Shown here in pieces: positions 3 to 53,200 of a stretch of 64,000 nt of DNA. Source of the stretch: an uncultured beta proteobacterium. Its GTDB lineage: Bacteria > Pseudomonadota > Gammaproteobacteria > Burkholderiales > Casimicrobiaceae. The position numbers were made by a program, and so were the translations under genes. The stretch's first letter is position 1; each line of letters starts with the position of its first letter. The notes below the pieces were generated by a model, which worked only from the letters and a program-made list of their open reading frames with translations, had not been told where the DNA came from and made no database searches. The stretch covers positions 50,407 through 114,406 of the forward strand of contig CAVPUM010000003.1 of NCBI GenBank assembly GCA_963708855.1. Direction: 5' to 3'.

Positions 3-668
3 CTACACACCTACGCCGGACGGGCGGGCGGCAGTCCGCTGATGCTGTCGTACCGGGACATCGTCGTCGCCTACAGCGGCAGCGGTAAGGCGTCGCGGCT
101 CGAATCGGCGCTGCGCGGGCCGATGTCGAGCATGTTGCGGCCCGACGAGACCAGCGCCATCATTGCCTGGGTGCAGGATGGCGCCGATCGTGCGAAGTAC
201 GAGAGCGAGATCAAGCCGACGATCGAGCAGCGCTGCCTCACCTGCCACGACGGGAGCGTCAATCCGCACCTGCCGAACTTCAACAGCTACGACAGCTTGA
301 AGAAAGTGACCGAGCAGGACACCGGCGCGAATGTCTTCACGCTCGTTCGCGTGTCGCACATCCACCTGTTCGGGGTCACGTTCATCTTCTTCATCGTGGG
401 CACCATCTTCAGCCACGCCTACGTCCGTCCGGTGTGGTTCAAGTGCACTGTTATCGCCCTTCCGTTCGGCGCCCTCTTCGTCGACATCGCATCGTGGTAC
501 TTCACGAAGCTCTATCATCCGTTCGCCATCGTGGTGATGCTCGCCGGCGCGATCATGGGGCTGTGCTTCGCCTTCATGTGGGTGGTCAGCATGTACCAGC
601 TCTGGTTCTCCCCGACGCCCTCGCCCGTAGCCCAGCGCGAGAGCGGCGACCTGCCCGCGATCGACTGA
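3..668 (+). CDS. membrane protein with one CxxCH haem-c motif (5' end probably outside window)
   Basis: Frame is open from the window edge (first in-frame ATG at 42). CLTCH motif is followed by hydrophobic helices (VTFIFFIVGTIF, VIALPFGALFV, AIVVMLAGAIMGLCFAFMWVV). TGA at 666-668. No family name recognised. Confidence 0.55.
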   Translation, partial: LHTYAGRAGGSPLMLSYRDIVVAYSGSGKASRLESALRGPMSSMLRPDETSAIIAWVQDGADRAKYESEIKPTIEQRCLTCHDGSVNPHLPNFNSYDSLKKVTEQDTGANVFTLVRVSHIHLFGVTFIFFIVGTIFSHAYVRPVWFKCTVIALPFGALFVDIASWYFTKLYHPFAIVVMLAGAIMGLCFAFMWVVSMYQLWFSPTPSPVAQRESGDLPAID

Positions 669-765
669 GGCGGCATCGGCCCGGGGAACAAGTGTGCGCC
701 GATCGACGTCGACGAGGAGGACCGGCTCCGGCGCTTCGCAAGCCATCGCAATTCGAGGAATCGTC

Positions 766-1857
766 ATGACGCAGATCGCAGGCTTTACTGTTACCCGGTT
801 GGTCGACAAGGCGCGGTGGTGGCTCGTCATGTTAGCCGTCGCCGCGTTGACGACCGGGCTCGCATCCGGAGCGTCTTCGGCGCAGAGCGCCGAGCGCAGC
901 GGCAAGGACGTCGTGGCGGCGTCGTGTGTCGCCTGCCACGGCAGCGGCGCGAACGGCGCACCCAGGATCGGCGACAAGAAGGCTTGGGAGAAGCGCGCGG
1001 CTCAGGGCCTGACCGGCCTCACGGCCAACGCGCTCAAGGGCATCCGGCAGATGCCGTCGCACGGCGGAAACACCAATCTGACGGACACGGAAGTCGAGCG
1101 CGCGATCACCTACATGGTCAACCAGTCGGGCGGCAAATGGGTCGAACCGACGAGCCGCACGGCCAAGACAGCCGACCGCACCGGCGAACAGGTCGTGCAG
1201 GCACGGTGCATCAAGTGCCACCAGACGGGCGAGGGCGGCGCGCCGAAGATCGGCGACCGCGCAGCATGGATCCCGCGCGTCAAGCAAGGGCTCGACGTCG
1301 TGGTCCGCTCGGCGATCCAGGGCCACGGCGGCATGCCGGCGCGCGGCGGACAGGCCGACCTCACCGATGCGGAAATGCGCAATGCAGTGATCTACATGTT
1401 CAATCAAGGTACCGCGCCGGCCGGCGGCGCGACCGCGGCTGCGCCGTCGGTTCCGGCGCCCCGATCCGACGCCACGCACAAGGTCGTCGCCGGAACGGCG
1501 ATCGAATTGGGCGTCGTCTCGGCCGAATCGCTGCGCGCGCAGCACCCCAAGCCGGACGCGGAAAGCACGATGCACGGAGGGATTCCGACCGGCAGTGGCT
1601 TTTTCCACGTGAACATCTCGCTGCGCGATACGGCGACGAATGACACAATCAAGGATGCCGAGGTCGAGGTGAGGGTCGCTAATCCCGTCACCGGCAGCGA
1701 AACAAAGAAGCTCGACCCGATCGCGATTGGCGGCACGCCGAGCTACGGAAATTACTTCCGGATGCCCGGCAAGGAACCCTACACGATCGTGGTGCAGGTC
1801 AGCCGACCGGGCGTGCCCCGGCTTATCGAGGCCAGGTTCGCCTACCGGCACGACTGA
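766..1857 (+). CDS. dihaem class-I cytochrome c (c5-like repeats) fused to a C-terminal beta-rich domain
   Basis: GAGGAA lies 6 nt before ATG 766. Leader WWLVMLAVAALTTGLASGA. Two repeats, CVACHG...MPSHGG and CIKCHQ...MPARGG. An Ala/Pro linker precedes a ~130-aa tail (FHVNISL...YGNYFRM...YTIVVQV). Confidence 0.75.
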   Translation: MTQIAGFTVTRLVDKARWWLVMLAVAALTTGLASGASSAQSAERSGKDVVAASCVACHGSGANGAPRIGDKKAWEKRAAQGLTGLTANALKGIRQMPSHGGNTNLTDTEVERAITYMVNQSGGKWVEPTSRTAKTADRTGEQVVQARCIKCHQTGEGGAPKIGDRAAWIPRVKQGLDVVVRSAIQGHGGMPARGGQADLTDAEMRNAVIYMFNQGTAPAGGATAAAPSVPAPRSDATHKVVAGTAIELGVVSAESLRAQHPKPDAESTMHGGIPTGSGFFHVNISLRDTATNDTIKDAEVEVRVANPVTGSETKKLDPIAIGGTPSYGNYFRMPGKEPYTIVVQVSRPGVPRLIEARFAYRHD

Positions 1858-3243: not shown

Positions 3244-3528
3244 ATGAAGTCGATCGTTTTGGCGGCCGTCGTGGCCGCGGGGATCGCCGTGTCCGGCGCA
3301 GCGAACGCATCCGAAGCGCTGGCGAAAAGCAGCGGCTGCATGACGTGCCACGACATGGCCACCAAGAAGATGGGGCCGTCGTACAAGGACATCGCGGCCA
3401 AGTACAAGGGCAAGGCGGATGCGGAAAAGACGATCGTCGCGAATCTGAAGGCTGCCAAGGGCCATCCGGCCGTCAAGACGTCGGATGCCGATACGGTCAC
3501 GCTGGTGAAGTGGATCCTCGCGATGTAG
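3244..3528 (+). CDS. small soluble monohaem cytochrome c (c551/c552-like)
   Basis: AAGGAG before ATG 3244. Signal peptide, single CMTCH, KYKGK, and C-terminal LVKWIL. Confidence 0.85.
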   Translation: MKSIVLAAVVAAGIAVSGAANASEALAKSSGCMTCHDMATKKMGPSYKDIAAKYKGKADAEKTIVANLKAAKGHPAVKTSDADTVTLVKWILAM

Positions 3529-3666: not shown

Positions 3667-3951
3667 ATGAAATCGATCGTTATTGCGGCCATCGTGGCCG
3701 TTGGGATGGCGGCTGCCGGCACGGCCAGCGCGCAGGAGGCACTGGCCAAGAGCAGCGGTTGCATGACCTGCCACGACATCAACACGAAGAAGATGGGCCC
3801 GGCGTTCAAGGAAACGGCCGCCAAGTACAAGGGCAAGGCCGATGCCGAGGCCAAGCTCGTGACAATGCTCTCCACGGCCAAGGGTCACCCGGAAGTGAAG
3901 GCGAAGGGCGACGACCTGAAGGGCCTCGTCAAATGGGTGCTGTCGCTGTAG
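3667..3951 (+). CDS. small soluble monohaem cytochrome c, tandem paralogue
   Basis: GAGGAG before ATG 3667. 94 aa, 61/94 residues identical to the 3244-3528 product by manual alignment. CMTCH, KYKGKADAE, LVKWVL. Confidence 0.85.
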   Translation: MKSIVIAAIVAVGMAAAGTASAQEALAKSSGCMTCHDINTKKMGPAFKETAAKYKGKADAEAKLVTMLSTAKGHPEVKAKGDDLKGLVKWVLSL

Positions 3952-3998: not shown

Positions 3999-4137
3999 CG
4001 TTGCCTGACCGGCGCAATCCGCCGCGATGTGCGTCGAGCTTGCGCCAGCGCAAACACCGCGATCCGCAACCGGGGCCGCTGCGGATAAGATGTGACGTTT
4101 CGTCGCACCACCGCTCGCCCCACCCCTGCTCCAAGGC

Positions 4138-5526
4138 ATGCCCGCCGACGCCGAAACCGCCGTTTCCGCTGCCCCGCTCCAGGGTGAGGGCAAGACGCCC
4201 GCGCCCGCTGCCTGGTGGCGTTCCGCTCCACTGACCCCGGACCGGACCGATCCTCCCGCGCGGTGGCAGGATCCGGCGCTTCCGGCCAGTGTGCGGCAAC
4301 TCATCGACCTGCGCAGCATCGCGATCGCGGGTCAGACGCTCGCGGTGGCGGGGGCCGTCCTGCTTGGAGTGTCGCTCCCCGTCGTCCCGATGGCGATCAT
4401 CATCGCTGCGCTCGTTGCGTTGAATATCGTCGCCTCGGTGCGCCAGAAACGGGGGTCGCCGGCCACGCATGGCGCCGTCGCCGCCCAGCTAGCGCTCGAC
4501 CTCGCGGCCTTCACCGCCCTCCTGCTCCTCGCCGGCGGATCGGCCAATCCGCTCACCTCCATCTACCTGCTGCACGTGGTCGTGATCGCGACGCTGCTGC
4601 CGTGGCGAAGCGCGCTCGCCGGCACGGCGCTCGTCATCGCGAGCCTTGCGCTGGCGATTCGCTTTGCGGAGCCGTTGCGGCACGCGGACGGCCAGCCGCT
4701 GTCGGAGGCGACGCTGGCGGTCGGTCTTTGGGTCAGCTTCGCGCTGACCGCGGCCGTGACCGCCTGGTTCGTCATCCGGCTCATCGCCACGCTGTGCGAG
4801 CACGAACGCCTGCTGCAGGAAGCCGCGCGACGGGCGCTGAACGACGAGACGGTCATGCGCATAGGCACGCTGGCGGCCGGCGCCGCGCACGAGCTCGGAA
4901 CGCCGCTCACCACGATGACCATGGTCGTCGGCGAAATGCAGCGCGAAGCCGATACGCCGGCGCGGCAGCGCGACACCGCGATCCTGGCCGCGCAGATAGA
5001 GGCGTGCCGGCAGGCGCTGTCCAATCTGTGCGCGGCTGCGGGTCACGCCCGCGCCGAGGACGGCGGTCCGGAGAGGTTCGACGCGTTTCTGGCATCGGTG
5101 GCGGCGCGGTTCCGCGCGATGCGACCCGATGTTCCGCTGCAGACCCGCTGGGACGGCGCACTCCCGGCGCCGGAGATCTTCGCCGACCGGTCGCTGCGAC
5201 AGTCGCTGCTGATTCTTCTCAACAACGCTGCCGACGCCTCCCCGCATCGGGTCGACATCACGGCCCGCTGGGACGCGCAATCGCTTTACGTGGCCGTCAC
5301 TGACCGCGGTAGCGGCGTTGCGCCCGACCACATCGACATGCTGGGACGAGCTTTCTTCACGACGAAGGCTCCCGGGCAGGGCACCGGACTCGGGCTTGTC
5401 CTCGCCGCGTCGACGGTGAGTCGCCTCGGTGGTACAGTCCGCTGGTCGAATCGCGGCGACGGCGGGCTCTGCGCAGAGATCCGGTTGCCGCTGGATCGCC
5501 TGCTGCTGTCGTCGCCATGCCCATGA
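4138..5526 (+). CDS. regB: RegB/PrrB/ActS-type redox-sensing histidine kinase
   Basis: Polytopic N-terminus with a GGSANPL (RegB quinone-site-like GGxxNPF) motif. H-box AHELGTPLTTM, Cys in IEACRQAL, N/G boxes LLNNAADAS, DRGSGV, GTGLGL. 10-nt overlap with regA. Confidence 0.8.
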   Translation: MPADAETAVSAAPLQGEGKTPAPAAWWRSAPLTPDRTDPPARWQDPALPASVRQLIDLRSIAIAGQTLAVAGAVLLGVSLPVVPMAIIIAALVALNIVASVRQKRGSPATHGAVAAQLALDLAAFTALLLLAGGSANPLTSIYLLHVVVIATLLPWRSALAGTALVIASLALAIRFAEPLRHADGQPLSEATLAVGLWVSFALTAAVTAWFVIRLIATLCEHERLLQEAARRALNDETVMRIGTLAAGAAHELGTPLTTMTMVVGEMQREADTPARQRDTAILAAQIEACRQALSNLCAAAGHARAEDGGPERFDAFLASVAARFRAMRPDVPLQTRWDGALPAPEIFADRSLRQSLLILLNNAADASPHRVDITARWDAQSLYVAVTDRGSGVAPDHIDMLGRAFFTTKAPGQGTGLGLVLAASTVSRLGGTVRWSNRGDGGLCAEIRLPLDRLLLSSPCP

Positions 5527-6080
5527 ACCCCGCCAAACCCGATTCGCACGATCGAGCGCGCCTGTTGCTGGTCGACGACGATCGTGCGCTTTGCGAGGTC
5601 ATGGGACGGGCGTTCGCGGCGCGCGGATTCGACGTGGTCGCCGTGCACACGGTGGAAGACGCGATCCGCACGATCGACGGTGATCCGCCCGAGTTCGCAA
5701 TCGTCGACCTCAAGCTGCCCGACCATTCGGGCCTCAAGATCGTGTCTCACCTCAAGACGGCGGATGCCTGCACGCGCATCGTCGTGCTCACCGGGCACGG
5801 CAGCATCCCGACGGCGATCGAGGCGATCAAGCTCGGCGCGACGTATTACCTTACCAAGCCCACCGACGCCGACGCCGTGCTGGCGGCATTCGGACGGGAG
5901 GGTGGTGACGACGCCGTGCCGATCGACGCGAAGCCCATGAGCGTCGAACGCGTCGAGTGGGAGCATATCCAGCACGTTCTGCATGAGAACGGCGGGAATG
6001 TCTCCGCGACAGCGCGCGCGCTGTCGATGCACCGGCGCACGCTGCAACGCAAGCTCCTTCGCCGACCGGCGAAGGCCTGA
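5517..6080 (+). CDS. regA: RegA/PrrA/ActR-type response regulator
   Basis: Receiver domain (LLLVDDD, DLKLPD, LTKP) plus the near-invariant RegA HTH NVSATARALSMHRRTLQRKL. Confidence 0.88.
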   Translation: MPMNPAKPDSHDRARLLLVDDDRALCEVMGRAFAARGFDVVAVHTVEDAIRTIDGDPPEFAIVDLKLPDHSGLKIVSHLKTADACTRIVVLTGHGSIPTAIEAIKLGATYYLTKPTDADAVLAAFGREGGDDAVPIDAKPMSVERVEWEHIQHVLHENGGNVSATARALSMHRRTLQRKLLRRPAKA

Positions 6081-6171
6081 CGCGCCCGCGGGAAGCGGGA
6101 AGCCGGGCGCGCGGCCAAGCCCGCACCCGGGCGACCGCCGCTGGAGGCAGCGAGGGTCGAGGCCGCTTCCC

Positions 6172-7518
6172 TCAGCCCTTCGTCGCGTCGAGGTTCATCT
6201 CCGGCCATTTCCTGCCGTGGCAGGCCGGATTGGAACAGAAGCTGCCGCCGTCCTTGCCCCACTTGATCGGGCCGTGGCACATCGCGCACGAGCTGTCGAT
6301 CTTCGAGCGGTGGTCGTGCATCCAGTTCGGCGCGTTGTGGCCTTCCGGCGGCGTCAGGCCCTGAGCGACGGTCGACGCGACGGTCTTCAGACTGCCGTCG
6401 ATCGTGACCTGCGGGAGGTCGTGGCACAGCGTGCACTGCAGCCTGATCGCCTCGCCCTTCTCGTTCACGTGCTTGCCGTCGTGGCAGCGGAAGCAACCGG
6501 GGAAGTCCTTGTGCCCGACGTGGTTCGGGAACGACTTCCACGTGAGGTCCTTCGCCTCGAACTCGGACAGCTTGAGGACTTCGAGCATCGCCGCCGCGAA
6601 CTGCGCCTCGGCCGCCTTCGCCTCGGGCTTCAGCTCGCCCTTGGGCGCCGCGTCGGCGATGATCTGCTGGAATTTCGGGACCTGTTCCTCCATCGGGCCG
6701 TGCAGCGTCGAGGCCTTGTCGATGATCGCGAGCGCGCGCGCCTTGATCGACGGCAGGCTGCGGTCGATCTTGCCCTCCGAGATCGCCTGGTCGACGCGAT
6801 CCGACGGGTTGACGAACGGGTGGCCCGCCGCATTGTGGCAGTCGGAGCACTCCATCCGCTGCTTCGGCTTCTGGTCCATCTCGGCACGGCCGACCTTGCT
6901 CGCGGCGTCGAAGTAGGTCGTGGTCTTGCCGTCCTTGCCCGTGATGCGAACCCAGGGGATCGTGCGCTTCTGCGCGTCGTCGGTGACGAACTCGACGTTC
7001 TGGGCGATGTGCCAGTGAATGCCGCGCGTCGCCTTGTCGCGCGCCTCGCCGCTGCCCGTGTGCACGACGAGCCGCGTGCGCGTTTCCGTGTTCTTGGCGT
7101 CGGCTTCGTAGTGGACCTTGGTGCGGACCCGGTCGGAGTGGTTGACCTCCGGCCAGTGACAGCTCTCGCAGTTGTCGCGAGCCGGGCGCAGCGTCGTGGC
7201 CGCGAGCGGCCGCTTGTACCCGGTGACCATGCCCAGCAGCTCGTGGTAGTGCGCCATCTTGAGCGTCATCAGCTGCAGCGTGGGCAGCCGCCCCATGTGG
7301 CACTCGACGCACTGGACGCGCGCGTGCGACGCGACGGCGTAGGCCCGCGGCTCCTCCGGGTGGACCGCGTGGCAGTTGTCGGTGCAGAACGCGTTGCTGT
7401 TGCTGTACTCCCACGCGACGATGCCGCCCGCGCCCAGGACCGCCAGAGCGATGGCGCCGACGACGAGCGTGGTCACCGTGCCCAGCATCAAGGTGCGCCG
7501 CCCCAATGTGATCTTCAT
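6172..7518 (-). CDS. membrane-anchored multihaem cytochrome c, NapC/NirT-like N-terminus (up to 8 haems)
   Basis: GGGAGGGA RBS before ATG 7518. N-terminal TM helix. Motifs CTDNCH (CX3CH), CVECH, CESCH, CSDCH, CFRCH, CTLCH, CAMCH, CSNPACH (CX4CH). Confidence 0.8.
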   Translation of the reverse strand: MKITLGRRTLMLGTVTTLVVGAIALAVLGAGGIVAWEYSNSNAFCTDNCHAVHPEEPRAYAVASHARVQCVECHMGRLPTLQLMTLKMAHYHELLGMVTGYKRPLAATTLRPARDNCESCHWPEVNHSDRVRTKVHYEADAKNTETRTRLVVHTGSGEARDKATRGIHWHIAQNVEFVTDDAQKRTIPWVRITGKDGKTTTYFDAASKVGRAEMDQKPKQRMECSDCHNAAGHPFVNPSDRVDQAISEGKIDRSLPSIKARALAIIDKASTLHGPMEEQVPKFQQIIADAAPKGELKPEAKAAEAQFAAAMLEVLKLSEFEAKDLTWKSFPNHVGHKDFPGCFRCHDGKHVNEKGEAIRLQCTLCHDLPQVTIDGSLKTVASTVAQGLTPPEGHNAPNWMHDHRSKIDSSCAMCHGPIKWGKDGGSFCSNPACHGRKWPEMNLDATKG

Positions 7519-7584
7519 CGCCGATTCCCTCCCTGTGGTCCCGCGCACCGGTGGCCGGGTGCAACGACCTGCCGGATATTGTAA

Positions 7585-8463
7585 CTAGAAGATGCTGTAG
7601 ACGATCAGCACGATCGCCACGATGCCGAGCGTCAGCGCCGTGCCGCCGACGACCCAGCCGAACCACTTCGCTTCGGCGGTCGGCGCCGGCGCTTCCTTCT
7701 CGGCGAGCCGGCCTTCCCTGACCAGCCGCTCGTATTCGGCCAGGCGCTCCGACTTGAGCTCGTGCTCGGAAATGCGCCCGGTGAAGATCACGGTGTCCAT
7801 CGGGAACTTCGCGGGCCGCACGTGGCCGTTGAAGAAGTGGAAGGTGAAGATGAAGCCGGCGGCGAGCAGCGCCTCCTCGCCGTGCACCAGCGCCGCGATG
7901 TTGAACATCCAGCCGGGCAGGAGCTGCGAGAAGAACACCGGGAACCAGAGCAGCAGCCCGGAGCCGCCGATGATCACCATCCCCCAGAACACCGCCCAGT
8001 AGTCGAACTTCTCCCAGTAGGTCCAGCGGTCGAACTGGGGCTGCGGCCCGGCGCCGACGAACCACTTGAAGTTGCGCACGATGTCGACGATGTCCTGCGG
8101 TTGCGGCACCAGCGAGTCCGGGCCCCAGAGGAGCGGCAGGACGCCGCCGCGCGCGATCGCCTTCGACAGCAGGAGGACCACGTGGCTCGAGAACACGAGG
8201 ATCATCACGCACGCGCAGATCCGGTGAATGACGCCGGCGCTCTCGAACCCGCCGAGGATGCGCGCGAGCGTCGCGGCCCACGGCTCGTCCGCGTACAGAA
8301 GCGGCAGGCCGGTCAGCGCGCAGCCGACGAAAGTCAGCATCAGCCCCGCGTGCATGACGCGCTGGGGCGCCGTGAAGCGCCGGTAGTAGCGCTGCGCGGG
8401 ACCGGCGGTGCCGGCCGCGACGCCGGCCGCCGGAGCAGCCGGATTACCCGTAGCGATCGCCAT
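7585..8463 (-). CDS. b-type cytochrome membrane subunit (FdnI/HydC, PF01292-like)
   Basis: ATG 8463 shares one base with the upstream TGA (TGATG). Multiple hydrophobic helices carry His in VMHAG, VIHRI, LVHGEE, FTFHFF. Confidence 0.7.
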   Translation of the reverse strand: MAIATGNPAAPAAGVAAGTAGPAQRYYRRFTAPQRVMHAGLMLTFVGCALTGLPLLYADEPWAATLARILGGFESAGVIHRICACVMILVFSSHVVLLLSKAIARGGVLPLLWGPDSLVPQPQDIVDIVRNFKWFVGAGPQPQFDRWTYWEKFDYWAVFWGMVIIGGSGLLLWFPVFFSQLLPGWMFNIAALVHGEEALLAAGFIFTFHFFNGHVRPAKFPMDTVIFTGRISEHELKSERLAEYERLVREGRLAEKEAPAPTAEAKWFGWVVGGTALTLGIVAIVLIVYSIF

Positions 8464-9720
8464 CAATGCCTTTCGTCACGTTTGCGGCCGCCCCCGAACT
8501 TGACGGCGAGCTCGCGATAGAGCCAGAGGATCGAGTGGAGGCCGAAGAACGCGAACACGCCGAACAGCAGGAACTCCATGAACATGGCGGCGTAGTAGTA
8601 GAGGGGATCGCGGTTCCTGTCGTGCCGGTTCGCGTGCGGATCGATGTTGGCGAAGTTCGCGCCCGCCCCGGCGTGGCAGGCCTGGCATGTCTTGAGCCTG
8701 TTCTCCTTCGACACCTTCGACGCGGGGTTCGCTGCCGGCAGCACCTCGTGCGCGCCATGACAGGAGGCGCAGGTCGCCACCCGCGCGTAGCCGAGTGCCG
8801 TCACCTGGCCGTGGAACGTGTTGCGGTAGGTCGATATGTAATCGGCATGGCAGTTGCCGCATTCCTTGATGACCTCGGTCTGGAAGGACGGCTTGTCGTG
8901 CTCCTGGATCGCGTGCGCGCTGTGGCAGTCCGTGCATCCGGGCGCCGCGAGCATGCCCTCCTGGCGCAGCTTGCCGTGCATGCTCTGGACGTACGCCTCG
9001 CGCTCCTTCTTGTGGCAGCTGCCGCAGGTGTCCGGGATCCGGGCGCGATGGGTGCGGCTCTCCGCTTCGCCCTTGGCGCGGATGTCGTGCGCGCCGTGGC
9101 AGTTCGTGCAGGTGGGCGCCGAAGCCTGCGCCGCACCCTGGAGCGCCTTGCCGTGGATGCTGTCGTGGAACTTGCTGCCGATGTTGCCGCCGGGCAGCTT
9201 GCCCTTGGCCACGACGGCATCGCTGCCGTGGCACTTGCCGCAGGTGGCCTCGACGTTCGCGTGATTCGTGCGCGAATCCTCGCCCTTTGCCCGCTTGATG
9301 TCGTGCGTGCCGTGGCAATCCGTGCAGGTGGCGGCGACGGCGTTGCCGCCCTTGCGCGCCAGCGCCGTGCACGGTCCCCGCGTACTCCTTGACCGCCTTG
9401 CTCGTGGCAGGTCGCGCAGTTGACCGGCTTCAGCTTGTCGGGATGCGGGAGCTTCGTCGGCCGAGACATCCGCGTGGCAGTCGGTGCATTTCAGCTTGAG
9501 TTCGCCGTGCACCGACGCGCCGAACTTCGCTCCGTCGACGGCGATCGACTTGCCGCCCGCGCCCTTGGCGTCGGCGGCGGCATGGCACATCTGGCAGGTT
9601 TCGTTCGGGTTCGGGGGCGCCGCCGGGGCTGCCGCCCGGGTTGCTGCCGGCGCGGAGGCGGCGGCAGCGAGGCAGAAGACAGCCGCACAGGGCCTGAAAT
9701 ATTGTTTTGGCGAGAATCAT
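8463..9720 (-). pseudogene. 11-haem cytochrome c with C-terminal membrane anchor, frame-disrupted (about 4 breaks; may be assembly indels)
   Basis: ATG 9720 and leader MILAKTIFQALCGCLL. Motifs CQMCH, CTDCH, CATCH, CTDCH, CGKCH, CTNCH, CGSCH, CTDCH, CGNCH, CASCH, CQACH. C-terminal helix FMEFLLFGVFAFFGL. The colinear reading needs frame changes near 9670, 9455, 9400 and 9370. Confidence 0.7.
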
Positions 9721-9925
9721 CCGATATCCCTGCGAGGGACGCGCGGCACACACCGGCCGCGACCCGCGCATTGCGCGGGCCCGGGGCGCACCACTGGCGA
9801 ATGGTGTCACCCGGTTCCGCCCCGCGGTCTTGACCTGTGTCAATCCGCGCCGCTCGACGCCGGGATTCGCCGCGACCGGTTGCCGGGATGGCGCGCGAGT
9901 CCCCGGACCAACGCGGTTCAAGGGT

Positions 9926-10909
9926 TCAGTCGCCTCGCACGCGTCCTTCGCGGACCAGCGCCGTGTAGAGCTTCACGTCGGCTTCGATGCGCGCCGTCAG
10001 CTGCTGCGGCGTCGACGGGGTCACCTCGAAGCCGGCCGCTTCGATCCGGCCGCGCACCGCCGGCGCCGCCAGCGCATCGACCACCTCGCGCTGGATCGCC
10101 GCCAGTACCGCGGGCGGCGTGCCGGCGACGCCGACCAGCGCCGCCCACGGCCGCATCTCCACCGCCGGCCCGCCGGCTTCGACGATGGTCGGAATTTCCG
10201 GCGCCTCGGCCAGCCGCGCCGGCGCGGCCACCGCCAGCGCCTTCATCTTGCCGCCCTTGAGGTAGCCGCTCGCCGAATTGAGCCCGAACACGGTGAAGTC
10301 GACATCGCCGAGCGCCACCGCGGTGAAAAGAGCGCCCGCCTCCTTGAACGGAACGTGCAGCATGTTCACGTTGGCCGCCCGTGCCAGCGTTTCGACGCAC
10401 ATCTGCGTCGGGTGGCCGTTGCCAAGCGAGGCGTAGCTCACCTTCCCCGGCTGCCGCCGGGCGTCGGCCAGCATCTCCGCCACCGTGGCGTAGCGGCTCT
10501 TCGACGCGACCAGGATCAGGAACGTGGCGCGAAACAGCAGCGATATCGGCACCAGGTCTCGCGCAGGATCGTAGGGCAGCGACGCGTGGATGAGCGGATT
10601 CACGGCGAGCGTACCGGTGTCCCCGACAAACAGCGTGTGGCCGTCCGGCGGCGTGTTGCGCACGTCCGCGAACGCCACGATGCCGGACGCCCCGGGCTTG
10701 TTGTCGACGATCACCGGCTGGCCCCAGCGCTGCGCCAGCCGTTCGGCCAGCGCACGGGCGACGAGGTCGGGTCCGATGCCGACCGAGTACGGGACGACGA
10801 TGCGCACGGTGCGCGCGGGAAATGCGGCGGCCGCGATCGCGGCGCGCGGCGCCAGCGCGCAGCCCGCCAGCGTCACGAGCATGCGGCGGCGCGTGGTGAC
10901 GACAGCCAT
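9926..10909 (-). CDS. Bug/TctC-family tripartite tricarboxylate transporter substrate-binding protein
   Basis: 327 aa. Leader [55 protein letters not shown]. Starts 14 nt after the metH stop. Confidence 0.85.
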
Positions 10910-10923
10910 TGGCTCGGGCGTCC

Positions 10924-14628
<3,705 letters not shown>

Positions 14629-14785
14629 GGCGGGCGATGGAGGCGGATTCGAGTCTTGGATTCTAGCATTGGCAGCGACCCCGTCCGTGGCGCCCGGGCA
14701 CCGGATGCCCGACCCGGCGGACCGGTTATAACGGCCCAACCAACGAGCCTAACGCGCCGCAATCCCGCGTGTTAAATTGATCGCC

Positions 14786-15172
14786 ATGAAGCACATGAAA
14801 CCACACGAAGCCGCCCAGTTCCTTCACGACAATCCGTCGGCGGTCTTCATCGACTGCCGCAGCGAGATGGAGTACTTCTTCGTCGGCCACCCGGTCGGCG
14901 CGCACCACGTCGCGTGGAACGACGGGCCCGACTGGGACATCAATCCCCATTTCGTCGGGCAGGTGAAGAAAGTCGCGAGCATGAACCGGCCGATCGTCCT
15001 CATCTGCCGCAGCGGGCATCGGTCGCTCGACGCCGGCGACGCGCTCGAAAAGGCCGGCTTCGGCGATGTCTGCAACGTCCTCGACGGATTCGAAGGACCG
15101 CTCGACGATACCCATCACCGCGGCAGCGTCTCCGGCTGGCGGATGGAAGGCCTGCCCTGGGAGCAGCTGTAG
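14786..15172 (+). CDS. single-domain rhodanese-like sulfurtransferase
   Basis: Active-site loop CRSGHRS. ATG 14786 (a TTG at 14777 is also possible). Confidence 0.8.
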   Translation: MKHMKPHEAAQFLHDNPSAVFIDCRSEMEYFFVGHPVGAHHVAWNDGPDWDINPHFVGQVKKVASMNRPIVLICRSGHRSLDAGDALEKAGFGDVCNVLDGFEGPLDDTHHRGSVSGWRMEGLPWEQL

Positions 15173-15197
15173 CCTGACAGGCGCCGGCACTTCCGGA

Positions 15198-15716
15198 TCA
15201 CAACGCGAGCGCCATGTAGACCACGCCGCGGCAGCGGGTTGTCGTAATACGCCGCGCATTCCCGGAAGCCCAGCCGGGCGTAGAGCCTTCGCGCGTCGGC
15301 CATCCAGTCGAGCGTGTCGAGCTTGAGCTCCCGGTAGCCGATCGCTCGCGCATCGGCGATCAGCGCCTCCGCGAGCCGGCGCCCCCAGCCGCCGCTGCGA
15401 TGGGCCGGTTGCACGTAAAGTCGCTTCACTTCGCCGATGCCCGGCGCACCGGGTGCAGCCGACACCCCGGCGAGCCGCCGCGTCGAGCTGCCCGATCGGC
15501 CGCAGCGCGATGCAGCCGAACGCTGCTCCGGGACCGCCCGCGAGCAGCAGCCGCCCGCGCGGCGGCGCGTAGGCACCCGGCAAGGCGGCGAGTTCCCGGT
15601 CGAAGCCCTGAAAACAGAGATCGACCTGCAGCCAATGCGCGTACTCGACGAACAGCGCGCGCGCAAGCGCGATGTCGTCATCCGTCGTGGCGAGGCGAAG
15701 GCTGGCCGTCCGGCAC
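15198..15716 (-). pseudogene. GNAT family N-acetyltransferase, frame-disrupted (>=3 breaks)
   Basis: Motif A RLYVQPAHRSGGWGRRLAEAL and YARLGF lie in one frame. The N-terminus (ATTDDDIALARALFVEYAHW..., GCIALRPIG) and C-terminus (VVYMALAL-stop) lie in other frames. Confidence 0.65.
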
Positions 15717-15810
15717 GGTGCGCTCCCCGGCCCTACCCGGCTGCGCCGCGCGCCGCCGGCTTCGCGTCGGGACCGCTCGCCAATTTCATCAGCGCCTCAA
15801 CGCCGGAATC

Positions 15811-16471
15811 TCACTGCGCCTTCTCGCAATTGCCGATCTTCGCCTCGCTGCCCGGGTACGCCGGCGCGAGATCGCGAAGCCGCGCGATGACCGGCGCCTG
15901 CGGATCGCGGATGACGAAAAGCGATCGACACGATCACTTGCTGGCGCGGCCCCAGCCTGGCGTTCGCCGCGCCCAGCCGCACGACCTCGGCAAGCCGGGC
16001 CTTCGCGGCGTCCTCGGTGACGAAGGCACCGAGCGATACGGCATTGCGTTGCAGACTGTTGTCGACGATCGACACGTCGTTGATGCCGCGCGCCCTGGCT
16101 TCGGCGGCCCGACGCTCGGCCTCGGCCCGGTTCGTCGCCGGCGGAAGATAGACCCAGAAAGCCGTGCTGGTCTCGATGCGTCGCTGCGTGAGCAGCTTGC
16201 CCAGCGCGAGCGACTCGAGCTCCGCGAGCGCCCGCGCGCGGTCGCCTTCGGCAATCGGGCCCCACTCGAGGCAGACGTCCGCGAGCGCCGCGACCTTGCC
16301 CGGGCCGAGCGCCGCCACCTGCTGCGGGGTGAGCAACTTGATCTTGTCGGGCTGCACCTGCTCGGCGAGGCGGACGGCTTCGCCGCTTCCCGTCGAGTCG
16401 AGGCGCGTGTAACCGAAGAACGTCACGTTCGCGAGCAGGAGAAGGAACACGACGGTTCGCATCGGGGTCAT
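15811..16471 (-). pseudogene. SPOR domain membrane protein, one frame break
   Basis: TM helix VVFLLLLANVTFFGY. The break sits at the A4/T4 run 15917-15920. The restored tail ...VIRDPQAPVIARLRDL...GNCEKAQ ends at TGA 15811-15813. ATGA overlap with the coaX stop. Confidence 0.65.
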
Positions 16472-17223
16472 TTCACTTCTTCGGCGAGCGCGAGCACGCC
16501 TTCGAGCACGAGATTGTCGATCACCTCCACCGGCGGGTCGAGATGCAATCCGATTTCGGGGGCGGCGCCGCCGGCGAGATAGCAACGGACGTGTCCCGGA
16601 TCGGCATCGATCCGGCGGCGCATCTGCTCGACTGGCGCCGCAGACGGCCTGCACCGCGCCGGTGTAGATCGCGTCCGCCGTGTTGTCCGGAAACGGGCGG
16701 AACGCACCGGCCGGCACCTTGAGGCCCGACGTGTTCTCGGCGAGCGAGGCCAGCATGAGCCGCAGGCCCGGGAAGGATCAGGCCGCCGCGGAAGACGCCG
16801 TCCACGTCGAGCACATCGATGGTGACCGCCGTGCCCGCGTTGACGACGACGCACGCCGGCGGGAACAGATCGGTCGCCGTCGAGCGCCGCCATGCCGCGA
16901 CGAGCGATGCCCACCGGTCCGCGCCGAGTTGCGCGGGCTGTGCGTAGCGGTTGGTGACGCCGCAGGCGGATTCCGATGCGCACAGCCATTCCGGCGTGAT
17001 GCGCCAGCGCGCGAGCTGCGCCTCGATGCGCACGCGCGCAGCCTCGCCGGCGACGTTGACGCCCACGACGCGCGCCGGGGCGCGGCAGATTGTGCCAGTC
17101 GCGCAGCGACAGCGCGCCGATCTCGCTGTTGGGAGTCACGCCGAGCGTCACCCACCCGTGCGGGCCGCGCAGTCCCCATTTCATCCGGCTGTTGCCGGCG
17201 TCGATGACGAGAACCCGGCTCAA
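16468..17223 (-). pseudogene. coaX: type III pantothenate kinase CoaX, frame-disrupted (>=3 breaks)
   Basis: VLVIDAGNSRMKW, VVVNAGTAVTIDV, FPDNTADAIYTGAV and DNLVLEGV are colinear but spread over three frames. TTG start overlaps the birA stop. Confidence 0.8.
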
Positions 17224-48496: not shown

Positions 48497-49031
48497 CGCG
48501 CTCGCGCTCTGCGCCACCGCCACGCTCGCCGTCGGCGCCGCCTTGGCGATGGGCAAGGTCTCGCCTCCACCCCTGCCCGACCCGGTCGCGGCGCTCGCCC
48601 CGGACCTGCGGCCGCAGGGGGGTGGCGAGCTCAGGTACTTCGGCCTGTCGATCTACGACGGCTTCTACTGGAGCCCCGCCCCCAGCTTCTCGGTGACGCA
48701 GCCGTTCGCGCTCGATCTCCATTACCACCGCCACCTCAAGGGCGACGGCATCGCCGAGCGCAGCATCGAGGAGATCCGCAGGCTGGGCGTCGCCTCGCCC
48801 GACGAGCAATCGCGCTGGCACGACGCGATGCGGCGGATCTTCCCCGACGTGAAGAAAGGCGACCGCCTCATTGGCGTCAATGTCCCCGGACGCGGCGCAA
48901 AGTTCTTCCACAACGGCGCGCCGATAGGCGAGATCGCCGACATTGCGTTCGCACGCGCGTTCTTCGGCATCTGGCTCGATCCGAAGACGTCGCGACCGGA
49001 CTTCCGCCGGTTGCTCCTCGGCGAGCGCTAG
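48465..49031 (+). CDS. secreted chalcone-isomerase-like domain protein
   Basis: Leader MSATTRSLARSALALCATATLAVGAALA. FGLSIYDGFYW, FARAFFGIWL. 32-nt overlap with the cfa-family gene. Confidence 0.55.
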   Translation: MSATTRSLARSALALCATATLAVGAALAMGKVSPPPLPDPVAALAPDLRPQGGGELRYFGLSIYDGFYWSPAPSFSVTQPFALDLHYHRHLKGDGIAERSIEEIRRLGVASPDEQSRWHDAMRRIFPDVKKGDRLIGVNVPGRGAKFFHNGAPIGEIADIAFARAFFGIWLDPKTSRPDFRRLLLGER

Positions 49032-49042
49032 GATCTCAGGTC

Positions 49043-50383
49043 ATGCCGTCGAGCGCTCACGTTCCGGCATCGGCTGCGGCCGCCGCGCCCCGGCTCGCCG
49101 CCCCGATGCCGTACGGCAAGCCCGCGCAACGCCTGCCACTGCCCGCGCTCGTCGCGTACGGTGCGTTCGGCATGCCGCTCGCGATGGCGGCGCTGCCGCT
49201 GTACGTGCACCTGCCGCGCTTCTACGGCGAGCACCTCGGCGTGGGACTCGCCGCGCTCGGCGTGCTGCTGCTTCTGCTGCGCGTCGCCGACGGCCTCCTC
49301 GACCCGCTGCTCGGCGCATGGAGCGACCGCGGGCCGTCGCGCCGCGCGCTGATCGCGCTGTCGGCGCCGGCGCTCGCCGTCGGCATGATCGCGCTGTTCT
49401 CGCCGACGGTCGCGGGCGAGGGCGCGCTCCTCGCGTGGCTCGGCGTGTCGCTCGCGCTCGTCTATCTCGCCTTCAGCCTCGCGACGATCAACCACGGCGC
49501 GTGGGGCGCGGAGCTCGCGCACGATCCCGTCGAGCGCACGCGCATCACGGCTGTGCGCGAGGGCCTCGCGCTGCTCGGAGTCGTGGTCGCCAGCATTGCG
49601 CCGGGAATGCTCGGCGGCGCCGGCGGCGACGACGCCGGCCTGCCACGATTCGCGATCGCCTTCGCGGTGTTCACCGCATTCTGCCTCGCGCTGCTCTGGC
49701 GCGCGCCGCTTGCGCCGCGGGCCGACGCACGTCAGGGCACGATCTTCGCCAGCATGGCGAAGCCCCTTGCCGATCCCCTGTTCCGGCCGCTCGTCGCGGT
49801 GTTCCTCGCCAACGGCATCGCGTCGGCGATCCCGGCGACGCTCGTTCTCTTCTTCATCGCCGACGTGCTGCAGGCGGAATCGCGCCAGGGGTTGTTCCTC
49901 GCGCTGTACTTCGTCGCCGGCGCCGCCGGCATGCCGCTGTGGATCCGGCTCTCGGCGGCGGTCGGCAAGGTGCGCGGCTGGGCGATCGCGATGCTCGCCG
50001 CGACCACGGCGTTCGTCTGGGCTGCGCTGCTCGGGCCGGGCGACGTGACCGCGTTCGCGATCATCTGCGTGCTGTCGGGGCTCGCGCTCGGTGCCGATCT
50101 CGCGCTGCCGCCGTCGATCCTCGCCGACGTCATCGAACGCCGCGGCGCAATGCAGTCGACCGGTGCGTACTTCGGCGTGTGGACGCTCGTGACCAAGCTC
50201 AACCTCGCGCTGGCGGCGGGCATCGCATTGCCGCTCCTCTCCGCACTCGGCTACACCCCTGGCGCGACTGACGCGAAGGCGCAGGACGCGCTGGCCTTCG
50301 TCTATGCGGCCGTCCCCTGCGCACTCAAGCTCGTCGCCGTCGGCGCGCTCGTCTGGTTCGCCAAGCGCCAAAACAGAGGCTGA
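49043..50383 (+). CDS. MFS transporter (GPH-like)
   Basis: Intact 446 aa. 12 hydrophobic helices. DGLLDPLLGAWSDR loop motif. Confidence 0.75.
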   Translation: MPSSAHVPASAAAAAPRLAAPMPYGKPAQRLPLPALVAYGAFGMPLAMAALPLYVHLPRFYGEHLGVGLAALGVLLLLLRVADGLLDPLLGAWSDRGPSRRALIALSAPALAVGMIALFSPTVAGEGALLAWLGVSLALVYLAFSLATINHGAWGAELAHDPVERTRITAVREGLALLGVVVASIAPGMLGGAGGDDAGLPRFAIAFAVFTAFCLALLWRAPLAPRADARQGTIFASMAKPLADPLFRPLVAVFLANGIASAIPATLVLFFIADVLQAESRQGLFLALYFVAGAAGMPLWIRLSAAVGKVRGWAIAMLAATTAFVWAALLGPGDVTAFAIICVLSGLALGADLALPPSILADVIERRGAMQSTGAYFGVWTLVTKLNLALAAGIALPLLSALGYTPGATDAKAQDALAFVYAAVPCALKLVAVGALVWFAKRQNRG

Positions 50384-50386
50384 CTC

Positions 50387-50908
50387 ATGCTCAAATATGT
50401 GCTGATCGGCGCCGCCGCGCTTTCGCTCGCCGGCTGCGCGACCGTCGACGTGGCGAACTACGCCTCCGAGCGTCCTGCGCTCGACCTCGCCGAGTACTTC
50501 AACGGCACGGTCGACGGCTGGGGCATGTTCCAGGACCGCTCGGGCAAGGTCGTGCGCCGCTTTACGGTGCGCATCGATGCGAAATGGGAAGGCAACCGGG
50601 GTACGCTCGACGAGCAGTTCGAGTTCGCGGACGGCGAGAAGCAGCAGCGCGTCTGGACCCTGGTAAAGGACGGCGACCGCTATTCGGGCACCGCCGGCGA
50701 CGTCGTCGGAACGGGACACGGCATCCAGCAGGGAAATGCGTTCAACATGCGCTACGTGCTGCAGGTGCCGTGGTCGGGATGGGCGATCGACGTCGACATG
50801 GACGACTGGATGTGGCGCATCGACGACAAGACCGTGCTCAACCGCACAGTGATGAGCAAGTTCGGCTTCCGCGCCGGTGAAGTGACGCTCTCGTTCCGCA
50901 GGCGCTAG
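50387..50908 (+). CDS. DUF3833 family lipoprotein
   Basis: Lipobox LSLAGC. YFNGTVDGWGMFQDRSGKVVRRFTV...W..G.LDE.F.F.DGE pattern. Confidence 0.7.
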   Translation: MLKYVLIGAAALSLAGCATVDVANYASERPALDLAEYFNGTVDGWGMFQDRSGKVVRRFTVRIDAKWEGNRGTLDEQFEFADGEKQQRVWTLVKDGDRYSGTAGDVVGTGHGIQQGNAFNMRYVLQVPWSGWAIDVDMDDWMWRIDDKTVLNRTVMSKFGFRAGEVTLSFRRR

Positions 50909-53026
50909 GGCCTGCTCACGACAACCCTCTCGGCATTCCCGCCCCGGGCACCGGTTCGCTTTTTCGGCGGCTTCACCTTCGCCTTGTCCGCCGCAGCCTT
51001 TGGCGCGCGCGGCAAGCGCCAGCCTGCGCACGCGCCGGATGTCCGCATCCGAGAACGGCCCGTTGACGCCGGAGATGGCCGCGAGCTTCATCCCGTGCTT
51101 GCGGCCGAGACGATAGATCTCGCGCACCTTCTCCCATTCGATGTTGCGGCCGACGGTGAAGTTGTCGAACTTTCCCTCCAGGGCGAGGACAATCGTTTCG
51201 GCGAGGCAGGCATAGGCCACGTTCCTGGGTAGCCCGATGTTCTTCATCGACACCTGCCCGGGCAGCAGGATCTCGCCGGACTCGATCACCAGCACGTCCG
51301 GACGCTTGGCCACTTCCTCCGGCGGCAGATCGAGCGGGCGCGCGACGTCGGTGATCACGCATCCGGGCTTGACCTGCATGATGTCGAGGATCTTCTTGCC
51401 GGCCCCCGAGGTCGCGGTCACGATCATGTCCATGCCGGCGATGTCCGTGTCGGCGCGCGAGGACAGGAACAGCCTGGCGTCGGGGGTCTCCTTCAGGATC
51501 GACCCCTTGAGCGAGAGCAGCTTCGCGGTTTCGGGAGACACCAGGTAGACCTCCTCGGCGACCATCGCCAGCAGGCGCGCGCAGACCGAGCCGATGGCCC
51601 CGGTGGCGCCCACCACCATCGCCTTGAAGCGCACTTTCTGACCGCGCGCCGGCATGGGCACCAGGCCGAGGCGCAGCACGGCATCGTGCGCGGCCCACAG
51701 CGCCCCCGAGGCGCTGTAGCTGTTGCCGGTGGTGATGGGCAGCGGCGCGCGCTTGGACACGGTGAGCCCCGCGTCGCCGACCACCTTGGTGAAGGCGCCG
51801 AGGCCCATGATCTGCGCACCGAGGCTCTTGGCGATCCCGGCGGCGTCCAGCAGGCGGCGGTAGGTGAACTCCGGGTTGTGGCTCATGATTTCCTGGGGCG
51901 TGCCGCCCACGGAGATGAGCCAGCCTTCGGCTTCCACGCCGGTGGGCGACTTGATGCCCGTCACCTTCGAATAGACGAACGGCGGCGCGTAGGCCATCAC
52001 TTTCTCCACCGCGTCCATGAAGATGGGCGGGGACACGTGGGAAAGCAGCTCGATGGGCTTCACGTTCTTGAAATACTCCTGCGACAGCGGATGGATGACG
52101 AAGGCGAACCGGTTGACGCGCTTGAAGCCGTTGGGATAGACGATCCGCGGCTCCAGCTCGAGGCTGGTGATGATCTCCAGATAGTCGTCCTCGAGGATCT
52201 CCGCGGGCGCCTTCTCGGTCGCGGCGATGATCATCGCGTCGAGGAGGCTCGGGCTCAGCACGTGATCGAACATCACGGGCGCGCCGTCGACCACCATGTT
52301 GACGCCCTTCTTCCTGAACTGCGCGATGCGCCCGTCGTTCACCGTCGACGTGACGATCGTCTTGCCGGCGAGCTCCTCGGCGGCAAAGCCGTCCAGCTCG
52401 TGCACGGGGGCGACGATGACCGTCGCATCCCGCATGGCCTGGCGCAGCACGAACTTCGTCCACGCCTTGACCGGGGCCGACGACATCAGGCCGTCGGGGG
52501 CCCAGTCGAGCACGTAGTGCGCGCCGCTGGTGTAGAGCTCCAGCGCCTCCAGCGAGGTCAGCATCTTGGGCACGCCGAGCTGCAGCAGGGCGTCGGCGAA
52601 CTCGAGATTCTGCGTGTACTCGGACATGGCCAACGCCAGCTTGTAGTTGGTTCGTCCCGAAAAGAACAGGACGCGGGCGTTGTTGAAATAGTCGCCCAGC
52701 TTGATCTGGACGTGGCGCAGCGCCCACTCCTGCAGGATGTCGTTCAACCGTCCGCCGGTGGTCACGGGAACGCGCGTGACGGCATTCTTCATCCGCGCGC
52801 TGTCCTTCTCGACATAGCGCCGCGATCCGACCGCATAGCTGTCCTTGACCACACCCAGGCCGATCGCGTCGGCATGCTGTTCCCAGTGCTTCAGCAGGTT
52901 CACGGCCTTCGCGGTGCTGCCGTTCGTGCCCAGCCTCCGGACGTCGAGTTTCTGCCGCAGGAACCGGGCGACGAAGGCGAAATCCTGGTCGCCCGCACCC
53001 AGGCTGACACCGATCACTTTTTTCAT
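50905..53026 (-). pseudogene. fusion protein: N-terminal uncharacterised 'quinate 5-dehydrogenase'-annotated domain + C-terminal acyl-ACP reductase (AAR)-like domain; one frame break near 50995
   Basis: ATG 53026. The C-terminal half aligns with cyanobacterial AAR (FAFVIHPLS, GLGAFTKVVG, TTGNSYSA, VVGATGAIGS, YACLAETIVLALEG..NFTVGRN). The main frame never stops (runs to 49028). A +1 shift gives ...AAADKAKVKPPKKRTGARGGNAERVVVSRP-TAG at 50905. Confidence 0.7.
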
Positions 53027-53200
53027 TCCATCCCCGCGCCATGCACGATGCCCAAGACGCTAGTGTACGGGGGCACTCCGGTCCCCGCGCCACCGCGAAT
53101 CTGCTCGAGATCAAACAGTTGACGAATGTTTCCGGCAGCGCTCTGGTCCGGCCGGCCCGATTGGTGCAATCTTGCAGGAAGTGAAACGCGAGACACGGGA

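Follow-up and report, generated by a model that had tools for sequence, protein, structure and literature searches.

An operon of uncultured Burkholderiales encoding an 11-haem cytochrome c, an FdnI-type cytochrome b and an ImcH-like cytochrome: a probable low-oxygen quinone:cytochrome c oxidoreductase

Three cytochrome genes and an FNR-type box

A 64-kb stretch of DNA from an uncultured betaproteobacterium (contig CAVPUM010000003.1 of assembly GCA_963708855.1; called the window below) was analysed around three adjacent cytochrome genes, which we number gene 1, gene 2 and gene 3 and refer to together as the trio. An earlier note, made from the letters of the window, had seen in them three co-oriented minus-strand genes for an orphan electron-transfer module whose role could not be deduced. 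A listing of open reading frames (ORFs) and a six-frame translation confirmed the orientation, with gene 1 first, gene 2 second and gene 3 last. The three genes probably constitute one operon. The features at the locus are as follows.

8463..9720, minus strand: gene 1, 11-haem c-type cytochrome (Pfam PF14522, PF09699, PF14537 and PF22113; orthologue alignment)
7585..8463, minus strand: gene 2, FdnI-type cytochrome b, predicted to be dihaem (PF01292, FdnI fold, histidine pattern)
6172..7518, minus strand: gene 3, eight-haem cytochrome c fitting the ImcH family (motifs, PF03264, profile search; family definition in PMC4251993 and PMC6295460)
9830..9843, no strand: FNR/CRP-type palindrome TTGACCTGTGTCAA (TTGAY-N4-RTCAA), ending 110 nucleotides (nt) upstream of the gene 1 ATG

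Gene 1 runs from the ATG at 9720 to the TGA at 8465-8463 and encodes 417 residues once four extra bases are removed. The repaired product has a signal peptide (ASA/PA), 11 CxxCH motifs, some of them in a C..CHG.H.I-type pattern (e.g. CTDCHGTHDI and CTNCHGAHDI), and a C-terminal transmembrane helix at about residues 372-400. The ATG of gene 2 overlaps the gene 1 stop by one base (TGATG), and its 292-residue product has five hydrophobic, presumably transmembrane, helices. Gene 3 starts 66 nt downstream of the gene 2 stop and encodes 448 residues from the ATG at 7518, which is the start used by its homologues. These readings of gene 1 after repair, of the TGATG overlap and of gene 2 as a polytopic FdnI-type cytochrome b had all been given in the earlier note and were upheld, in the case of gene 2 by the five helices, PF01292, the FdnI fold match and invariant histidines.

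Related loci were taken as the best 80 of 194 carriers of gene 3 in a GTDB scan with one genome per species; loci are given L-numbers, L001 being the closest relative of the window, and counts of neighbouring genes cover up to 10 kb around the trio. Nearly all of the best 80 came from uncultured Betaproteobacteria, Burkholderiales or Casimicrobiaceae genomes, in agreement with the Burkholderiales context proposed earlier. The complete trio was present in at least 71 of the 80, the remainder being contig ends or frameshifted assemblies, and the order gene 1-gene 2-gene 3 held throughout, down to 52% identity. The term 'orphan' is thus too strong for what is a conserved operon. Farther single-helix relatives of gene 3 (457 residues; a metagenome cluster and a Haliea sp. 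genome) were solitary, without b or 11-haem genes, so that within the data examined the trio arrangement appears to be specific to the uncultured Burkholderiales/Casimicrobiaceae clade. Gene 3 has thousands of metagenomic homologues bearing generic names only, and look-ups of its distant clusters likewise returned nothing but generic names. No published description of the operon was found in the literature on Casimicrobiaceae and extracellular electron transfer. Nor was a characterised complex with the synteny of the full trio found; the earlier note had named such homology as the finding that would overturn it, and its proposal therefore stands on that point.

Gene 3 fits the ImcH family

Members of the ImcH family are described as having a membrane anchor, an adjacent atypical CX3CH motif, five to nine CXXCH motifs and homology to NapC/NirT (PMC4251993, PMC6295460). 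Their anchors mostly comprise three transmembrane motifs and in a few cases one, the single-helix form having been reported for two homologues. The product of gene 3 carries a single N-terminal hydrophobic helix (residues 8-38), CTDNCH (CX3CH, residues 45-50) next to it, six CXXCH motifs and CSNPACH (CX4CH, residues 428-434), and all eight haem motifs were invariant among 15 homologues 60-95% identical to it. It scored 28.8 bits against PF03264 (cut-off 24.1), while its scores against the NrfH/NapC models TIGR03153 (30 bits, cut-off 134) and TIGR02161 (19 bits, cut-off 311) fell far under the cut-offs, indicating that gene 3 does not encode a plain NapC/NirT protein. A tetrahaem NapC/NirT/NrfH quinol dehydrogenase of about 200 residues was ruled out by its length of 448 residues, its eight motifs and these low scores. 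The N-terminal anchor, the six CxxCH motifs, CTDNCH and CSNPACH noted previously are therefore confirmed, while the NapC/NirT-like assignment gives way to the ImcH family, which gene 3 fits by the published definition when set beside the description of GSU3259.

When 1.8 billion representative proteins were searched with a gene 3 profile, 2366 related clusters came up, many of them of about 500 residues with three helices, CX3CH and six CXXCH. Seven of the gene 3 motifs aligned with those of such three-helix, seven-haem proteins of about 500 residues, the profile matches reaching E 1e-76. One matched protein, P0325, has relatives from Ignavibacteriae, Melioribacteraceae and Calditrichia, which are among the phyla reported to contain ImcH homologues, and its E127, H137, K173 and Q179 coincide in position with those published for ImcH. 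Sequence and profile searches of the PDB with gene 3 yielded nothing.

Genes 1 and 2 look like a split CbcL/MtoC-type cytochrome

The 11 CxxCH motifs of gene 1 were also found in 70 of 75 orthologues. In a 70-sequence set the histidine of its anchor helix, His394, was almost invariant, and the conserved histidines of gene 1 suffice for bis-histidine ligation of all 11 haems. The protein is distantly MtrA/DmsE-like; searches of the PDB by sequence and profile returned a marginal match to NrfB only.

The match of gene 2 to PF01292 exceeded the gathering score, and His 38, 80, 94, 194, 209 and 214 were invariant in 70 sequences. FdnI (1kqf_C) was the only significant PDB match of the gene 2 structure model in a Foldseek search (E 1.5e-4; TM-score 0.72, normalised to target length). 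In a weak profile alignment, His 38, 80 and 194 of gene 2 fell on His 18, 57 and 155, which are haem ligands in FdnI. The TIGR01583 score was 42 bits against a cut-off of 116, below the FdnI equivalog level, sequence and profile searches of the PDB with gene 2 gave nothing, and no molybdopterin or iron-sulfur subunit genes of the fdnGH type were found near the trio. The inner-membrane proteins of the PCC3/PCC4 type, which bear WX3HX13H motifs in their helices 3 and 5 but lack an assigned family (He et al. 2017), were rejected as kin of gene 2, since gene 2 matches PF01292 and FdnI.

When the C-terminal helix of gene 1 is counted as the first transmembrane helix (TM1), genes 1 and 2 together encode a periplasmic multihaem domain followed by six helices, with one histidine in each of TM1-TM3 and two in TM5. 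These are His394 of gene 1 and, in gene 2, His38, His80 (plus His94) and His194 with His209. CbcL has been described with the same placement, one histidine in each of TM1-TM3 and two in TM5, and the MtoC and MtrH proteins of Betaproteobacteria, which are located in mtoAB/mtrAB clusters, are its homologues. On this architecture genes 1 and 2 look like a CbcL/MtoC-type bc cytochrome split into two polypeptides. Their histidine pattern fits CbcL better than CbcB; the two Geobacter proteins reportedly lack sequence homology to each other.

Three histidines, His94 and His214 of gene 2 and His394 of gene 1, go beyond the four expected haem ligands and are predicted to lie in the membrane's cytoplasmic half, where they could form a quinone site or bind a third haem.

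The box and the genes around the trio

The pattern TTGAY-N4-RTCAA had a single match in the 64-kb window, where 0.04 were expected. In 62 of 67 related loci such a box precedes gene 1 at a distance of no more than 350 nt, in most cases about 115-135 nt ahead of the start codon, and it is likely to be the binding site of a low-oxygen activator. Five loci also have it upstream of MtrA-like decahaem genes, and several have it ahead of small cytochrome c genes. The occurrence of one box before these genes and the trio points to a shared low-oxygen regulon.

The neighbours of the trio on its downstream side are the following.

4138..5526, plus strand: regB-type sensor kinase, convergent with the trio; a regB gene adjoins the trio in 21 of the 80 loci
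5517..6080, plus strand: regA-type response regulator (receiver and Fis-type helix-turn-helix); regA is near the trio in 26 of the 80 loci
3667..3951, plus strand: small class-I monohaem cytochrome c, c551/MtoD-like, 94 residues (PDB 4xxl_A, E 8.8e-14, full length)
3244..3528, plus strand: second such c551/MtoD-like cytochrome c, 94 residues, 65% identical to its paralogue at 3667-3951
694..1857, plus strand: dihaem cytochrome c of 387 residues with a C-terminal domain of about 130 residues lacking a Pfam match
42..668, plus strand: membrane protein with one CXXCH and no Pfam family, truncated at the left edge of the window

The regBA pair and the four further genes for c-type cytochromes that the earlier note had placed beside the trio were thus borne out, the latter at 42-668, 694-1857, 3244-3528 and 3667-3951. 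The membrane part of the regB kinase contains GGSANPL, which resembles the GGXXNPF ubiquinone-binding motif of RegB; this would fit sensing of the quinone pool.

Besides 4xxl_A, which we take to be MtoD of Sideroxydans, the product of 3667-3951 matched c551/c552 entries of the PDB. MtoD has bis-histidine ligation. The cytochrome at 3244-3528 is likely to be a periplasmic carrier, and a small cytochrome c lay within 10 kb of the trio in 54 of the 80 loci.

Genes for MtoAB-like porin-cytochromes were found within the same distance in nine of the 80 loci, their MtrA-like proteins having ten CXXCH motifs and the porin an MtrB_PioB domain. They lay variously upstream or downstream of the trio or divergent from it, so that their linkage to it does not descend from one inherited arrangement. 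In L003, the closest relative with such genes near the trio, they occupy the place of the 42-668/694-1857 pair, where the window ends. The pair itself also adjoins MtrAB-like genes in L053, and in L049 an MtrA-like gene is close by.

Hydrogenase maturation genes (hypF, hypD, hypE, hoxX/hypX and hypB) lay near the trio in 25 of the 80 loci and never in the same neighbourhood as MtrAB-like genes. These loci include L009, L011, L015, L023, L031, L036-L042, L046, L063, L068, L070, L072 and L074, and in L063, L068, L070 and L074 the maturation genes are directly upstream of the trio on the same strand. The hydrogenase structural genes lie outside the flanks examined in these loci. No hydrogenase maturation genes were found within the 64-kb window.

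Two other regions of the window may be mentioned. At 1890-2990 on the minus strand an SRPBCC/polyketide-cyclase-type protein is encoded together with a 161-residue protein consisting of a cyclic-nucleotide-binding domain only, in which no helix-turn-helix was found; this pair accompanies the trio and MtrAB-like genes in 11-16 loci, with an FNR-type box before its first gene in six. At 49028-53059, also on the minus strand, is an open frame of 1343 codons without a Pfam hit, of which the first 700 or so residues read as a real protein and the remainder looks like a chance GC-rich open frame or another frame error.

Proposed function of the trio

We propose that the trio is a low-oxygen-induced inner-membrane quinone:cytochrome c oxidoreductase and probably the inner-membrane end of an extracellular electron-transfer chain, a reading to which we give a probability of roughly 0.65. 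The operon would be switched on at low oxygen through the FNR-type site, and the complex would connect the quinone pool with periplasmic c-type cytochromes, electrons passing between the two. Genes 1 and 2 would supply a bc module, in which the dihaem cytochrome b links a cytoplasmic-side quinone site to the 11-haem, MtrA-like wire and the C-terminal helix of gene 1 packs against the b subunit. Gene 3 would contribute a subunit of the ImcH type, whose NrfH-like quinone site lies on the periplasmic side and is followed by a chain of eight haems. The haem chains may pass electrons to, or accept them from, the MtoD-like monohaem cytochromes encoded nearby; where MtoAB-type porin-cytochromes exist, these would be the next step and the trio would form the inner-membrane end of an extracellular pathway. 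The parts of the trio fit, or resemble architecturally, known inner-membrane cytochrome families for extracellular electron transfer. The earlier comparison of the trio with the quinone-linked Cbc complexes of Geobacter holds, and is sharpened here to a split CbcL/MtoC architecture plus ImcH.

We infer where quinone binds, in which direction electrons flow and with which partners the trio works in the cell, and take its quinone to be ubiquinone, as is usual in Burkholderiales. ImcH binds quinol on the periplasmic side and is electroneutral, and the ImcH/NrfH-type site of gene 3 would be electroneutral likewise. A b subunit of the FdnI type has its quinone site on the cytoplasmic side, so outward flow through it would be helped by the membrane potential; such help has been argued for CbcL and CbcBA in the use of low-potential acceptors. 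In Geobacter, ImcH-type and CbcL/CbcBA-type enzymes have separate genes and are used for acceptors that differ in potential.

Several observations weigh against this proposal. MtoAB-like genes are near the trio in just nine of the 80 loci, the hydrogenase maturation genes hypF, hypD, hypE and hoxX being the commoner neighbours, and neither MtoAB- nor MtrAB-like genes were found within the 64-kb window. No partner enzyme was found there either, 20 of the larger remaining ORFs (up to position 55.8 kb) being housekeeping genes or lacking a Pfam hit; in this the window is as had been described. In gene 3, the position of the ImcH haem-1 ligand Gln179 corresponds in a pairwise alignment to a variable residue, 92, that is not glutamine and is flanked by the invariant H90 and E93. 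Structure prediction gave an AlphaFold2 model of gene 3 too poor for a fold search (predicted local distance difference test, pLDDT, 47) and a weak model of gene 2, of moderate confidence (pLDDT 60), while the likeness of genes 1 and 2 to CbcL/MtoC is one of architecture. We also infer that all three proteins make one complex, with gene 3 bound to the gene 1-gene 2 pair. All homologues of the trio come from uncultured genomes.

Even so, it was too strong to call the role of the trio not deducible, given the conserved FNR-type box, the MtoD-like neighbours and the MtoAB-like genes within 10 kb in relatives. Of the earlier interpretation as a whole, the Cbc-like quinone-linked module survives, and the orphan status and the undeducible role do not.

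The most far-reaching form of the proposal, a single complex that joins an ImcH-like periplasmic-side and an FdnI-like cytoplasmic-side quinone site through 19 c and two b haems, we consider improbable. If true, it could provide a potential-sensing switch between electroneutral and membrane-potential-assisted routes, or Q-cycle-like branching without a Rieske protein, and ubiquinone-based soil bacteria could drive low-potential extracellular electron transfer.

Alternative explanations

The direction of flow may be the reverse, electrons from an extracellular or periplasmic donor (Fe(II) via MtoAB, for example, or H2 via a periplasmic hydrogenase) reducing the quinone; in Fe(II) oxidisers such a path has been proposed for MtoC and ImoA. 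This alternative is a matter of direction alone and is compatible with the oxidoreductase proposed above; we regard it as possible, if doubtful. Porin-cytochromes of the MtoAB/PioAB type (decahaem plus MtrB_PioB porin) are what the relatives carry, and no MtrC-like gene was seen near them; the cytochromes next to the trio are MtoD-like, maturation genes for uptake hydrogenase accompany it in 25 of the 80 loci, and CbcL/MtoC-type proteins occur in Fe(II) oxidisers. However, Mtr/Mto conduits are reversible in direction, and ImcH homologues have so far been implicated solely in quinol oxidation, none previously having been found next to mtoAB. With a cytoplasmic-side site of the FdnI type, inward flow would moreover run against the membrane potential, to judge from the mechanism of formate dehydrogenase-N, which would make the reduction of ubiquinone from donors at the level of Fe(II) harder.

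A function of more general kind, that of a quinol:cytochrome c oxidoreductase resembling alternative complex III, is unlikely in our estimate. Such an enzyme would reduce the c551/MtoD-like cytochromes at low oxygen, and these would feed terminal enzymes of the periplasm or membrane, for instance a cbb3 oxidase or denitrification reductases, with no special link to the cell exterior. Small class-I cytochromes are indeed the most constant neighbours of the trio (54 of 80 loci, against nine for MtoAB-like genes) and are close to c551/c552, the family to which the classical electron donors of such enzymes belong; the FNR-type box and regBA, too, fit a general control of microaerobic respiration. 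Yet the regulatory box is common to MtoAB-like genes, and among the loci examined with the query set no terminal oxidase or reductase lay beside the trio. Both building blocks, ImcH and the CbcL/MtoC-like architecture, have so far been tied to extracellular electron transfer, and gene 1 is an MtrA-like bis-histidine wire of a kind usually low in potential.

That one of the multihaem proteins is catalytic, for instance a reductase of nitrogen or sulfur oxyanions anchored by the other two as its quinol-oxidising module, is very improbable: weak similarity to NrfB, NrfH and the c554 family and the unusual CX3CH and CX4CH of gene 3 would speak for it, but the NCBIfam matches all fall far under their cut-offs, the invariant histidines suffice for bis-histidine ligation of every c haem in genes 1 and 3, no CXXCK, long-spacer or other catalytic-haem motif was found, CX3CH is a hallmark of ImcH and CX4CH is typical of class III cytochromes.

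Finally, the operon could be dead and gene 1 a true, multiply frameshifted pseudogene. Comparison with the L001 and L002 orthologues revealed four extra single bases in its 1.26 kb, near 9675-9678 and at 9455, 9400 and 9362, the first of which, close to the start of the gene, takes the signal peptide out of the open frame. When the window was compared with three independent close relatives, 13 private indels were found, all of them single-base insertions, all within 9362-17075 and none in 4100-9300; the insertion near 9676, at the N-terminal end, did not show up among them. A tblastn search of L001 proteins against the window showed frame changes also in coaX/PanK (three; insertions at 16632, 16765 and 17075), in metH (two; 12697 and 14332), in a GNAT gene and in a SPOR gene. 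An error of uniform type that hits housekeeping genes indicates faulty assembly rather than decay of the operon, and the insertions of 9362-17075 look like a local fault of assembly or polishing. Many of the relatives are long-contig metagenome-assembled genomes, with similar artefacts in some, e.g. L014 and L052. Long ORFs in these two loci that could pass for natural fusions of genes 1 and 2 proved to be such frameshift artefacts and were discarded. Both gene 2 and gene 3 are intact, their identity with the orthologues being 95-97%. The repair of gene 1 in the earlier note was sound, and we give the pseudogene little credence.

Discussion

The enzymes of the inner membrane that oxidise quinol or reduce quinone make up the step of extracellular electron transfer that is least understood, and a 2018 survey recognised CymA, CbcL/MtoC and ImcH as the sole inner-membrane families. 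The operon described here combines an ImcH type with a CbcL/MtoC-type architecture in one conserved, apparently oxygen-regulated unit. New as well are the split bc unit, the single-helix, eight-haem variant of ImcH and the host clade, which is large, uncultured, presumably ubiquinone-using and found in soil and sediment, with several thousand metagenome homologues. If the proposal is true, a common soil lineage would be electroactive, and it would offer a natural system for the cooperation of two kinds of quinone site.

Of the known systems, the Mto pathway of Sideroxydans lithotrophicus ES-1 (MtoAB, MtoD, PmcA and ImoA) has, like the locus, a quinone-linked cytochrome of the inner membrane and two small monohaem cytochromes, and its decahaem protein and MtrB_PioB porin have counterparts in relatives that carry the trio. 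MtoAB is absent from the window, however, and ImoA is a simple tetrahaem NapC/NirT protein, in contrast to the three-subunit module of about 21 haems proposed here. In FdnI, the γ subunit of Escherichia coli formate dehydrogenase-N, the haem-ligand histidines align with gene 2, and the neighbouring subunit FdnH supplies a C-terminal anchor helix as gene 1 does; gene 2 differs in its fifth helix and additional histidines, and FdnG and FdnH are absent here.

ImcH (GSU3259) shares with gene 3 the N-terminal anchor, the NapC/NirT/NrfH-like homology and a CX3CH followed by six CXXCH motifs. A 'GIHWH' insert domain of ImcH-like proteins is also present in gene 3, whose invariant K87, E37 (at the helix end) and Y101 are spaced much like K173, E127 and Y188 of ImcH. 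Gene 3 has one helix instead of three and an eighth, C-terminal haem (CX4CH). Whereas imcH is monocistronic and ImcH uses menaquinone, gene 3 stands in an operon with a bc module and its host presumably uses ubiquinone. The 2018 survey found no imcH near mtoAB, and the occurrence of an ImcH-family gene near mtoAB-like genes in relatives of the window is seen here for the first time.

CbcBA of Geobacter sulfurreducens is likewise a bc unit of two genes, in which the c subunit has a C-terminal anchor helix bearing a histidine. CbcA has seven haems, in contrast to the 11 of gene 1, and CbcB has four helices and three histidines as against the five helices and six invariant histidines of gene 2. 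The Geobacter genes are regulated by σ54/BccR, whereas the trio operon has an FNR-type box.

CbcL, MtoC and MtrH are fused polypeptides, while in the window and its relatives two ORFs overlap by one nucleotide after the first helix; CbcL has nine haems rather than 11, and gene 2 has the extra invariant His94 and His214, the likeness being judged by architecture. With all three proteins, genes 1 and 2 have in common a multihaem c domain joined to a six-helix b domain of the HydC/FdnI type (PF01292/FdnI), and the trio lies near MtoAB-like genes in nine relatives, much as mtoC and mtrH lie near mtoAB and mtrAB.

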